DNA from: Escherichia coli
GTDB lineage: Bacteria > Pseudomonadota > Gammaproteobacteria > Enterobacterales > Enterobacteriaceae
NCBI RefSeq assembly: GCF_013315695.1
Contig: NZ_CP054353.1
Reading direction: 5' to 3' (one strand)
Length of the DNA: 64,000 nt
Part shown: positions 38,545 to 42,347 of the stretch, one piece after another
How the letters are laid out: the number at the start of each line of letters is the position of its first letter
Position numbering within the stretch: the first letter of the stretch is position 1
Notes under the pieces: model-generated
What the model saw: only the letters and a program-made list of their open reading frames with translations
What the model was told of the DNA's origin: nothing
Databases searched by the model: none
Position numbers and translations under genes: made by a program

Positions 38545-38955
38545 CTACCAGGCTGATGGATGATCATCATCAATATCAAACACATTTCTGTAAAAACGAG
38601 AATGTTGCAAGGGATGAATAAGCGACCCCCAACAATCATAAATATCAGCCAGTTCGAACACATCGTATGAGAGATGTTGAGCAAACGATTCGGCACCTTC
38701 AAAAGACTCAAACACCTCATCATACAAGTGAATGTTTTCAGGATACGAAAGTGACAAGCAAAAACCAGACGTAGATTCCGTAACCAAGAAGACAAGGTGA
38801 TATTTATCATTCACCAGTGACTGAGCACATTTTTTTACAGAGCGAAGAATCACAGGGGAACGCGCGCCAATACGAAAGAGTTCTGCATGAGCACGGGCAT
38901 CAACAAAACTGTGAAACCCCTCACTTCTTGCAAGCTCACGTTCGGCAGCACGCAA
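38545..38955 (-). CDS. hypothetical protein, reverse-oriented inside the early operon
   Basis: 136-aa ORF on the opposite strand to the flanking early genes. Confidence 0.4.
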   Translation of the reverse strand: MRAAERELARSEGFHSFVDARAHAELFRIGARSPVILRSVKKCAQSLVNDKYHLVFLVTESTSGFCLSLSYPENIHLYDEVFESFEGAESFAQHLSYDVFELADIYDCWGSLIHPLQHSRFYRNVFDIDDDHPSAW

Positions 38956-39779: not shown

Positions 39780-40022
39780 ATGATCGAAGCCTACAAAATA
39801 CTTATCAATAACGCGTTGCAACGTTATCACTTTGAACTCGCAAACCGGGGCGTAACTAAGGATGAAAGCCTTCGTAACTCACTGCGCGGCGCAATTATGG
39901 GGCTATACAACTGCGCACTGGGCAGCGATGACCGTGAAGCGCTGGAAGAATTAAAGTCGATTATGACAGAACTGTTTGAAGGTGAAATTGTTGAGCCTTA
40001 CTTCACAGGGGTAGCCGCATGA
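39780..40022 (+). CDS. hypothetical early protein
   Basis: 80-aa ORF, stop overlaps the next start (ATGA). Confidence 0.45.
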   Translation: MIEAYKILINNALQRYHFELANRGVTKDESLRNSLRGAIMGLYNCALGSDDREALEELKSIMTELFEGEIVEPYFTGVAA

Positions 40023-40141
40023 GCATATTTCTTTCATGGGTAATTCTGATTATCTCCGTGCTTATGGCAATCGGCATTATGCGAATTATCTACACACTGA
40101 AGGATATCGAATTATTCTTTACCGGCGATAAACGCCGTAAA
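40016..40141 (+). CDS. small hydrophobic membrane peptide (41 aa)
   Basis: MSIFLSWVILIISVLMAIGIMRIIYTLKDIELFFTGDKRRK; translationally coupled start; below the ORF-track size cutoff. Confidence 0.35.
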
Positions 40142-40156
40142 TAAAGCGAAAACCTT

Positions 40157-40252
40157 ATGAAGAATGTAAAAGCAATACTCACCATCGCCACTGTATGGGT
40201 GATATTTCAGGTGAGTGCGCTTATCTGGTTAGCCCTGAAGATCTGGGAATAA
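40157..40252 (+). CDS. small hydrophobic membrane peptide (31 aa)
   Basis: MKNVKAILTIATVWVIFQVSALIWLALKIWE. Confidence 0.3.
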   Translation: MKNVKAILTIATVWVIFQVSALIWLALKIWE

Positions 40253-40333
40253 CCTGAAGCCGAAAGCAGGCGCGGAATAACACCAGAAAACACACGAGCA
40301 ATTAATTAAGGCATTCATGCCTTCGGGTTCCCT

Positions 40334-40588
40334 TTGTCTTTTTTCAGGAGTCAACAAATGAGAACAGCCGAATCACCCGGCAGAAAAATAACCGCCAGAC
40401 CAGCTAACCATCATGCACATATCAGCATTGCCGCAAGAAAAGCCGAGCGTGCGCATATCTGCGAATTGCTGCATGACCTGGTTAACACAGCGAGAGAGAA
40501 GCACACCTCCCCGGAGGAAACCTGTTCATCCATTGAACGACTGATTGCAATACTCGCCAACCCAGACGAACTGAAGGGGTGCGCATAA
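40334..40588 (+). CDS. hypothetical early protein
   Basis: 84-aa ORF, stop overlaps the exonuclease start. Confidence 0.35.
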   Translation: MSFFRSQQMRTAESPGRKITARPANHHAHISIAARKAERAHICELLHDLVNTAREKHTSPEETCSSIERLIAILANPDELKGCA

Positions 40589-41169: not shown

Positions 41170-41402
41170 GGTGAAGCCATGGTCGCCATCCTGAATGTGT
41201 GTTGCTGCCCCCCCCTGAACGTGGAAAGAAAAGCCCGCGCATCGCTGCGTTTATTCCGCGACGGCGTGCGGAATTTTTCACGCATAAAACCCCACGACTA
41301 CCTGGTAATAAGAATCGGTTTTCGCTGGCGATTGCTGAGCAAAAACAACGGGGCGTCATGGGATTTATTAACGCACGAAACCTATAACAAAGAGGCCGCG
41401 TT

Positions 41403-42347
41403 ATGAGCAAAGAACTGTTATCCGGCACGCCGCTTAAATGGGTGGGCGGAAAAAGTCGCATCATGAACACACTGAAGGCGCATCTGCCAGAAGCAGACTG
41501 CCTGGTTGAGCCGTTTGTGGGTGGCGCATCGGTATTCATGAACACCAGTTACAAGCGTTACATCCTGGGTGATTCCAATGGTGCGCTGATTAATTTCTAC
41601 CGGCAAGCCAGGGACAACACCGACAGCCTGATCGACGAGGCGAAAACCCTGTTCCTGAACCACAACAACAGGGGTGACTATCTCATCATTCGCGAAACCT
41701 TTAACGCAGAGAATCATGCCTTCCTGAACAGCAGAACGGGAATAAGCGACCGCCGTGAACTGCGACTGGCCGCCATGTTTTTGTACCTGAACCGACACAG
41801 CTTTAACGGTTTGTTCCGCGTGAACGGAAAAGGCGATTTTAACGTGCCTTTCGGCTGCTACCGCAAGCCCTACTTCCCTGAGCGTGAAATCCGCGCATTT
41901 GCAGACAAGGCAAACAGCACCCGAACGCTGCTTATCCACGCAGATTTTAAGGATACGCTGAACTCTGCCAGTCACCTGTTCGGCATGGGCAACACGCTTT
42001 GCGTGTACTGCGATCCCCCTTACCTGCAATTCAGTGGCCGGGACAATTTTACCGCCTACGGAAAACCATTCGATGAAGACGAGCACGTTCGTCTGAGGGC
42101 AGCGCTCGACCGCCTTTCACAGGAAACGGGCGGCATGACCAGCATCACCATCTCCAATTCCGACACACCGGAAACACGACGCATTTATCGGGGTTACCGG
42201 ATGAACTGCATACAGGCACCACGAAGCGTTGGCGCAAGAACCCGGGAATCAGCACCGGAGGTTATCGCCACCCTGAGATGCATCACATCCGCCTTATCAA
42301 CGGTTCGCACTTCTGCGCCACGAACATGGAAGAAGTACGCGTGCTGA
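41403..42347 (+). CDS. dam: DNA N6-adenine methyltransferase (Dam-like)
   Basis: 314 aa with CDPPY catalytic motif and FVGGASVF SAM-binding region. Confidence 0.85.
   Translation: MSKELLSGTPLKWVGGKSRIMNTLKAHLPEADCLVEPFVGGASVFMNTSYKRYILGDSNGALINFYRQARDNTDSLIDEAKTLFLNHNNRGDYLIIRETFNAENHAFLNSRTGISDRRELRLAAMFLYLNRHSFNGLFRVNGKGDFNVPFGCYRKPYFPEREIRAFADKANSTRTLLIHADFKDTLNSASHLFGMGNTLCVYCDPPYLQFSGRDNFTAYGKPFDEDEHVRLRAALDRLSQETGGMTSITISNSDTPETRRIYRGYRMNCIQAPRSVGARTRESAPEVIATLRCITSALSTVRTSAPRTWKKYAC

Follow-up and report, generated by a model that had tools for sequence, protein, structure and literature searches.

The window analysed here, a stretch of 64,000 nt of Escherichia coli DNA, carries a chromosomal prophage that adjoins dmsABC and is P88-like (Xuanwuvirus, P2-family); among sequenced phages it is closest to P88, Citrobacter phiSM and further Peduoviridae of the genus Xuanwuvirus. 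Two small open reading frames, designated ORF1 and ORF2, lie back to back in this prophage behind a gene for a DUF4754 protein, in the following arrangement.

39780-40022, plus strand: DUF4754 gene (80 aa), upstream partner of ORF1; match to Pfam PF15946 (E 1e-15) and phrog_2549
40007-40011, plus strand: Shine-Dalgarno site of ORF1, AGGGG, within the 3' end of the DUF4754 gene and 7 nt upstream of the ATG
40019-40144, plus strand: ORF1 (ATG to TAA), predicted 41-aa single-pass membrane peptide, homologue of P88 gp07; sequence MSIFLSWVILIISVLMAIGIMRIIYTLKDIELFFTGDKRRK
40145-40156, plus strand: 12-nt spacer from the ORF1 stop to the ORF2 ATG, which keeps both ORFs in one frame
About 40145-40276, plus strand: 132-bp indel segment carrying ORF2, flanked by an AATAA direct repeat
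40157-40252, plus strand: ORF2 (ATG to TAA), predicted 31-aa single-pass membrane peptide; sequence MKNVKAILTIATVWVIFQVSALIWLALKIWE
40277-40357, plus strand: conserved intergenic region at the end of the ORF1/ORF2 block

The first-pass annotation had placed two consecutive small ORFs of 41 and 31 aa at 40016-40252. Both are confirmed, at 40019-40144 and 40157-40252; the span as given starts 3 nt upstream of the ATG of ORF1. The region is 100% identical to that of E. coli MSB1_4I (NZ_LR898874), in which a P2-family prophage is integrated at dmsABC with the annotated gene order integrase, HTH repressor (minus strand), Cox-like protein, DUF4761, DUF4754 and ORF1, followed by a 76-aa protein, a 3'-5' exonuclease, a ParE-like protein, a Dam methylase and, further on, a replication endonuclease, portal and terminase. 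This gene order, from the integrase, HTH repressor and Cox-like protein to the replication endonuclease, makes the earlier assignment of the peptides to the early region correct: ORF1 and ORF2 follow cox and precede the gene for the replication endonuclease. The two genes upstream of ORF1 match Pfam DUF4761 and DUF4754. The arrangement of the genes indicates that ORF1 and ORF2 are co-transcribed in the early operon; this operon is under repressor control, and both peptides would therefore be made only after infection or induction and not in the lysogen.

The intergenic region at 40277-40357 contains a palindrome (AAGGCAT-TC-ATGCCTT), a T-rich run and the Shine-Dalgarno site of the next gene, and it is 93-96% identical in three related loci (L008, L009 and L010) versus 70-84% for the flanking genes. 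Its hairpin is weak (RNA z = -0.5), and the terminator scan makes no call there.

The stop codon of the DUF4754 gene (TGA, 40020-40022) overlaps the ATG of ORF1 in an ATGA motif, and ORF1 has a Shine-Dalgarno site of its own, in agreement with the initial proposal that the first peptide is translationally coupled to the upstream gene. The duplex of this site with the anti-Shine-Dalgarno sequence has an energy of -6.6 kcal/mol, versus a background mean of -1.9, and falls in the top 6% of background positions. GGGG, GGAG or GGGA is found 8-12 nt upstream of the ORF1 ATG in 36/36 distinct haplotypes, even where the DUF4754 genes differ. All 36 haplotypes, which represent 96 loci, also have the junction sequence ...GCATGA..., with which the existing annotations are in accord, and the frame homologous to ORF1 is open from this junction in every one of the 96 loci with a tblastn match.

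Each of the two peptides is predicted, as the first-pass annotation had it, to be essentially one hydrophobic helix, with best 19-residue Kyte-Doolittle means of 2.75 (ORF1) and 2.15 (ORF2) and single helices in AlphaFold2 models. The ORF1 value is the highest among the 296 small ATG ORFs of the window (that of P88 gp07 is 2.68), and its model, made from a small alignment, is one continuous helix over residues 2-38 (pLDDT 82). The peptide consists of an uncharged N-terminus, a hydrophobic helix at residues 3-21 and a basic tail, predicted to be cytoplasmic, that has six basic and three acidic residues and a conserved FFTG motif; M1, F4, S6, W7, L10-S13, A17, G19, I23 and I24 are invariant. The positive-inside rule predicts an N-out/C-in topology. 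A PDB search with ORF1 gave no match.

ORF1 is not an overlooked gene: it is already annotated in RefSeq by PGAP as a hypothetical protein (WP_000021704.1), and its homologue in phage P88, gp07 (YP_009113050), is already labelled 'membrane protein'. By tblastn, ORF1 matches P88 and Citrobacter phiSM with 66-68% identity over 41/41 residues (E 5e-10 to 8e-10), and by phmmer its homologues, with 61-100% identity, form 24 protein clusters. The RefSeq counterparts of gp07 (WP_000021704.1, WP_000021655.1 and WP_000110304.1) are 66-100% identical to ORF1. P88 gp07 and ORF1 share the ATGA junction after DUF4754, the N-terminal helix and the FFTG tail; they differ in that the P88-type protein has 37 aa and ends in FFTGE, whereas the type found here has 41 aa with an extra basic KRRK end, and in that the P88 group is without ORF2. 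Relatives of ORF1 occur in 262 stretches of IMG/VR and in 1089/5426 complete E. coli genomes (approximately 20%), O157:H7 among them, and a profile search of 100,044 species-representative genomes with the ORF1 alignment found it in E. albertii only.

Variation among the 96 loci includes an altered C-terminus (L016, 45 aa) and a shortened one (L017, 30 aa), and in two further loci (L124 and L125) a 1-nt deletion cuts ORF1 to 22 aa, so that the gene is dispensable in at least one lineage. The frame bears the marks of a coding sequence: pN/pS is 0.29 in frame versus 1.1 and 2.1 in the other plus-strand frames, variable columns are distributed over the three codon positions as 23/9/31, and 43 synonymous events were counted versus 46 nonsynonymous ones where the expected synonymous fraction is 0.23-0.27 (P 2e-7 to 2e-5). 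Both parts of the peptide carry this signal, the tail (P 0.004-0.05) less strongly than the helix. Of all six frames, that of ORF1 shows the largest synonymous fraction and is the only one open in nearly all haplotypes. This substitution pattern shows purifying selection on ORF1, on helix and tail alike.

DUF4754 behaves differently. It is highly variable across prophages (25-43% amino-acid identity), and at loci where ORF1 is 87-97% identical it has only 41-51% nucleotide and 25-43% protein identity, so that a mosaic boundary coincides exactly with the ORF1 start. Unrelated DUF4754 alleles can be followed by one and the same ORF1 tail variant; thus comparison of the loci shows ORF1 recombining freely among very different DUF4754 alleles, and part of its high nucleotide conservation may reflect recent recombination and not selection.

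These observations bear on the main rival reading, in which ORF1 anchors the DUF4754 protein to the membrane or is its partner there, the two being made in fixed proportion by coupling and acting together as a two-subunit membrane module, with ORF2 as an optional third component. DUF4754 is directly upstream, with the ATGA overlap, at 96/96 ORF1 loci, and it adjoins ORF1 in all of the genome matches listed; the conserved FFTG motif of the tail could bind a soluble partner. Divergent DUF4754 lineages (30% identity) still encode a peptide of one helix from this ATGA junction, in sequences that are barely recognisable and whose homology is undetectable: one is an unannotated peptide of 34 aa in L010 (MSSTLIIIASWVILLASFVVSYFVVKLLTQYLNL), which the ORF1 HMM matches at E = 5.8, and another has 48 aa (L123, MSTNIPVLISWLFVGLSIVAALMLVKLWRLISKLDEENSADINKHNHK). 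Against this stand the sharp mosaic boundary between the two genes and the lack of co-variation between them, the same tail variant occurring with DUF4754 alleles that are 25-42% identical (L002 versus L011; the window versus L003); furthermore, the coupling may merely reflect compact operon packing. We therefore regard an anchor or partner function as unlikely, if still worth weighing. Database proteins of 103-116 aa that have the appearance of DUF4754-ORF1 fusions were also considered and discarded, as the sequences represent frameshifted assemblies or mis-called starts. A PDB search with DUF4754 matched designed helical repeats only.

ORF2 is a different case. It is carried by the 132-bp segment, which always directly follows ORF1 and is precisely missing from L008 and L009, where both ORF1 and the downstream intergenic region are retained. 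The segment was found in about 20 of 5426 complete E. coli genomes, in 9 IMG/VR contigs and in 13 metagenome contigs. In every ORF2-bearing RefSeq E. coli locus examined, PGAP leaves ORF2 unannotated, and a few GenBank records have it as a 'hypothetical protein' (KGM81220.1, DAU42316.1). No homologue was detected by tblastn against the phage collection, which returned noise only, and no relative of ORF2 was found by HMM at any other position in the loci retrieved. The ORF1 HMM does not match ORF2, and the ORF2 HMM matches ORF2 copies only, indicating that ORF2 is not homologous to ORF1 or gp07. The two ORFs are thus not equivalent: judged from these comparisons, ORF1 is a conserved part of a P88-like DUF4754 module, and ORF2 is a lineage-restricted add-on.

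The ORF2 peptide has a basic N-terminus (MKNVK), a helix at residues 6-27 and invariant W14, F17 and Q18, and AlphaFold2 gives, from a small alignment, one continuous helix (pLDDT 93). Its predicted topology, again by the positive-inside rule, is N-in/C-out. No Shine-Dalgarno site was found for ORF2, the anti-Shine-Dalgarno energy of -1.8 kcal/mol being equal to the background mean. The spacer between the two ORFs is 12 nt long in every haplotype while 5/12 of its positions vary, and this fixed length with varying sequence suggests that ribosomes probably reach ORF2 by termination-reinitiation once they have translated ORF1.

A reading frame that is open by chance within a non-coding spacer or indel, with ORF1 alone being translated, has to be weighed against a genuine ORF2 gene. 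The hydropathy of ORF2 ranks 7th among the 296 small ATG ORFs in the window, of which approximately 8% exceed the usual threshold of 1.6, so that the hydrophobicity of ORF2 is not by itself above chance. A non-gene would also fit the background-level ribosome-binding signal, the missing PGAP annotation and phage-collection homologue, the absence of the segment from the close relatives L008 and L009, a common allele in which Leu8 inside the helix is replaced by His (L8H), and the C-terminus of the window's allele, which a 1-nt deletion has changed to ...LKIWE (31 aa) from what is likely, by comparison of the haplotypes, to be the ancestral ...LKNLGII (33 aa). Moreover, ORF2 is known from 10 nucleotide haplotypes only, and those from the metagenome scan were picked by a pattern that fixes residues 17-28.

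The comparative evidence, unlike the hydropathy of the lone sequence, exceeds chance. ORF2 is intact in 41/41 loci, and the most divergent haplotypes (L024 and L025, 82-85% nucleotide identity), which were found via ORF1 or DUF4754 and hence without the bias of the search pattern, keep the frame, L024 with an in-frame 3-nt insertion. Synonymous events number 13 and nonsynonymous events 10, where the expected synonymous fraction is 0.23-0.28 (P 5e-4 to 3e-3, about 1e-3). The other five frames, with 1-8 synonymous of the 23 events, look neutral, and pN/pS is 0.28 in frame versus 1.45 and 1.56 in off frames. Of the six frames, that of ORF2 has the highest synonymous fraction and is one of two open in all haplotypes; the other, plus frame 2, has 3/23 synonymous events. 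All five additional differences seen inside the 33-aa clade are synonymous, and most of the nonsynonymous changes are conservative (V/L/I/A, S/C, T/S). These patterns show purifying selection on ORF2, which is probably a real, if lineage-restricted, gene, and we consider a chance reading frame improbable. Antisense or off-frame coding was excluded for both ORFs by the event counts and stop codons. Conservation of the reading frames, examined by synonymous pattern, was the check that the first-pass annotation had named as able to refute its proposal; both frames proved to be conserved, which supports the description of the pair as two tiny hydrophobic phage peptides, the first of them coupled.

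Neither peptide could be assigned to a known family. Pfam gave no family match for ORF1 or ORF2, the best PHROG and NCBIfam matches (E 0.02-0.3) were far below the curated cut-offs, and PADLOC assigned 0 families to either peptide; membership of a known defence family was rejected on these results. No Rfam family was matched at E <= 1. The promoter scan found 3 sites versus 3.0 expected from shuffled sequences, which is not above chance, and terminator-like sites were not above shuffled controls and enclosed no terminator-bounded unit. Neither strand of the ORF2 insert (z-scores -1.4 and -0.25) nor the downstream intergenic region folded better than shuffled RNA (z -0.25 to -1.4 overall). An interpretation of the segment as a structured RNA or small RNA was rejected because of the missing Rfam match, the promoter and terminator scans at or below chance and the unremarkable folds.

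Type I toxins are peptides of 19-52 aa, and those such as Hok, TisB, Ibs, Ldr and ShoB are small hydrophobic helical peptides like ORF1 and ORF2. Type I systems occur in prophages [PMC12648545]. One or both ORFs could accordingly be membrane-depolarising toxins, of type I or holin-like, with ORF2 or an antisense RNA as the antidote, and their size and hydrophobicity would fit. Characteristic of type I toxins, however, are a dedicated promoter, a structured mRNA and an antisense RNA, and ORF1/ORF2 showed none of these features: promoter-like sites on either strand are not above shuffles, there is no terminator-bounded unit or Rfam match, and RNA structure is unremarkable over the same range of z-scores. 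The genes are, moreover, co-oriented within an operon far from the lysis cassette. A holin or antiholin was judged unlikely since the genes belong to the early operon, from cox to the replication endonuclease, and not to the lysis cassette, and since neither ORF has a holin match in Pfam or PHROG. The null family, Rfam, promoter, terminator and fold results, together with an operon that is the wrong one for a holin, thus disfavour a type I toxin-antitoxin unit, a small RNA, a holin and a known defence family alike, and a toxin function appears very improbable.

Superinfection exclusion, in which the peptides would be anti-phage factors that block the entry of incoming phage DNA at the inner membrane, was considered as well; the first-pass annotation had suggested it together with division inhibition and toxicity. 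Exclusion factors are commonly small inner-membrane phage proteins, and T4 Imm and HK97 gp15 are factors that block DNA entry at this membrane. ORF1 and ORF2 would share this common form, and ORF2, as a lineage-specific insertion, resembles a moron. On the other hand, neither peptide matches PADLOC, Pfam or PHROGs, and exclusion benefits a prophage most in the lysogen, where these genes should be silent: they belong to the early lytic operon, which the repressor controls, and promoter-like sites do not exceed the shuffled expectation (3 versus 3.0). Exclusion in the lysogenic state is thus unlikely and exclusion during lytic growth is possible; as a whole we give the exclusion hypothesis a low probability.

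The position of the two genes has a counterpart in coliphage 186, also of the P2 family, whose early lytic operon contains two small non-essential host-takeover genes, fil and dhr. In the 186 record, fil is described by 'overexpression blocks cell division' and dhr by 'inhibits host DNA replication', and both genes stand just before the first early terminator, upstream of an exonuclease gene and the replication gene A. There are differences: with 75 and 66 aa, respectively, Fil and Dhr exceed ORF1 and ORF2 in size and are not clear single-helix membrane peptides, and the intergenic element after ORF1/ORF2 is not a convincing terminator, unlike the first early terminator of 186. Comparison of both translations with ORF1 and ORF2 revealed no sequence similarity and ruled out homology. 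The analogy with 186 is thus positional only, Fil and Dhr being neither homologous to either ORF nor clear membrane proteins.

Models for how such short peptides might act come from elsewhere. SidA and DidA of Caulobacter, YneA of Bacillus subtilis and gp56 of phage SPO1 are single-pass membrane peptides of about 30-80 aa that are made transiently and act by binding late divisome membrane proteins. The E. coli peptides AcrZ, MgtS, MgrB, PmrR and SgrT are single helices of 29-49 aa that act by binding a larger membrane protein. The former class of small membrane-bound division inhibitors has been described [PMC6051672], and the small inner-membrane regulators of E. coli have been reviewed [PMC12648545]. 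The division inhibitors share their small size and single-pass form with ORF1 and ORF2 and, as the family scans were empty, no homology; they serve here as a model of mechanism and not as a family assignment. The E. coli regulators differ in being chromosomal, stress-regulated and transcribed from their own promoters, and likewise have no sequence similarity to either ORF. A literature search found no paper mentioning the ORF1 or ORF2 proteins, their accessions, DUF4754 or DUF4761, and nothing usable on CP-933T transcriptomes or 186 fil/dhr.

Considering these results together, both ORFs are best explained as genuine early-operon genes for bitopic inner-membrane peptides, an explanation that we consider somewhat more probable than not. 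Within it, a host-takeover role through binding of a host inner-membrane complex can be put forward by analogy, as a tentative suggestion, and any specific target would be much more doubtful. Small host-takeover proteins of other phages alter host processes in this manner, and host takeover is our best guess because fil and dhr of 186 occupy the corresponding position of the early operon. In this scheme, ORF1 and, by termination-reinitiation behind it, ORF2 would be made early in lytic growth; once inserted in the inner membrane, the peptides would pair with membrane proteins of the host by helix-helix packing, using conserved helix residues that are small or polar, with the invariant residues S6, W7, S13, A17 and G19 and the cytoplasmic FFTG tail of ORF1, and W14, F17 and Q18 of ORF2, as candidate contacts. 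Division, transport or a comparable process of the host envelope would thereby be altered for a short time.

A bolder proposal, which we regard as having a slim chance of being right, is that in Escherichia P88-like phages DUF4754 and its coupled membrane peptide constitute an early module of two genes that is conserved as a unit. A hypervariable soluble protein engaged in an arms race would here be combined with a conserved peptide acting on an invariant inner-membrane target of the host, and ORF2 could be an accessory partner of ORF1 or its antagonist. ORF2, with its opposite predicted topology, could then form an antiparallel helix pair with ORF1, and because the two are in the same frame, separated by one UAA and four codons, rare readthrough of the stop codon might yield a two-helix product. 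If this were true, the module would represent a previously undescribed micro-protein system of host takeover or anti-defence.

As annotation, the gain from this analysis is small: ORF1 is widespread and already annotated, ORF2 is a minor addition, and both peptides are of an ordinary kind among phage early accessory genes. Small membrane proteins are, nevertheless, systematically under-annotated, and here a 31-aa gene was missed by the standard RefSeq pipeline despite a clear signature of selection, while a peptide of the 37-41-aa ORF1 type, present in about one-fifth of complete E. coli genomes, is without a family model. Should either peptide prove to inhibit a membrane process of the host, it would offer a compact tool or an antibacterial lead.

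The two single-helix membrane peptide genes ORF1 (40019-40144, plus strand, 41 aa) and ORF2 (40157-40252, plus strand, 31 aa) lie in the same reading frame and are separated solely by one TAA and four codons (40142-40159), and this common frame is kept in every haplotype among the loci that carry ORF2. Since the predicted topologies of the two peptides are complementary, a readthrough product would form a coherent two-helix protein. Frame sharing could also be a matter of chance (1 in 3). In two independent assemblies of related prophages (L124 and L125, both at 937-1005), a 1-nt deletion has cut ORF1 to 22 aa, consisting of the helix only, and ORF2 is intact just 3' of it; thus, ORF2 is able to persist without full-length ORF1.

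Single-helix peptides that differ from ORF1 occupy the same ATGA junction in divergent DUF4754 lineages, as in two related prophage loci:

L010 1279-1383: 34-aa single-helix peptide at the ATGA junction after a divergent DUF4754 gene
L123 361-507: 48-aa single-helix peptide at the ATGA junction after a divergent DUF4754 gene

The L010 peptide, left unannotated by PGAP, was the one of these two scored with the ORF1 HMM, which did not recognise it (E 5.8). Many database 'DUF4754' proteins of 103-116 aa (among P0031-P0087) were considered as real fusions and rejected as frameshifted read-throughs into the ORF1 region that originate from low-quality assemblies.

Other small genes of the early region were also noted. 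A 136-aa hypothetical gene (38545-38955, minus strand), annotated between the Cox-like gene and DUF4761, lies within the early region but on the other strand and looks like a moron, judging from its absence from other P88-like prophages (e.g., L002 and L014). The Dam methylase gene (41403) begins within a small gene at 41199-41405, annotated as a 'ParE family toxin-like protein', which has no evident antitoxin gene beside it. At a related locus in strain JNEC-KY203 (L012 689-1386), there is an IS1 element next to ycaD, together with a shortened form of the 76-aa gene; ORF1, ORF2 and the other prophage genes found elsewhere 5' of the 76-aa gene are missing from the retrieved stretch.

ORF2 is followed by a conserved intergenic region:

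40277-40357: perfect palindrome AAGGCAT-TC-ATGCCTT, T-rich run, and Shine-Dalgarno sequence of the next gene

In prophages L008, L009 and L010 this region is 93-96% identical, versus only 70-84% for the flanking genes. The palindrome is weak as an RNA hairpin (z -0.5), and a terminator scan of the region called no terminator. The region may be a protein-binding site, or the counterpart of tR1 of the P2-family coliphage 186.
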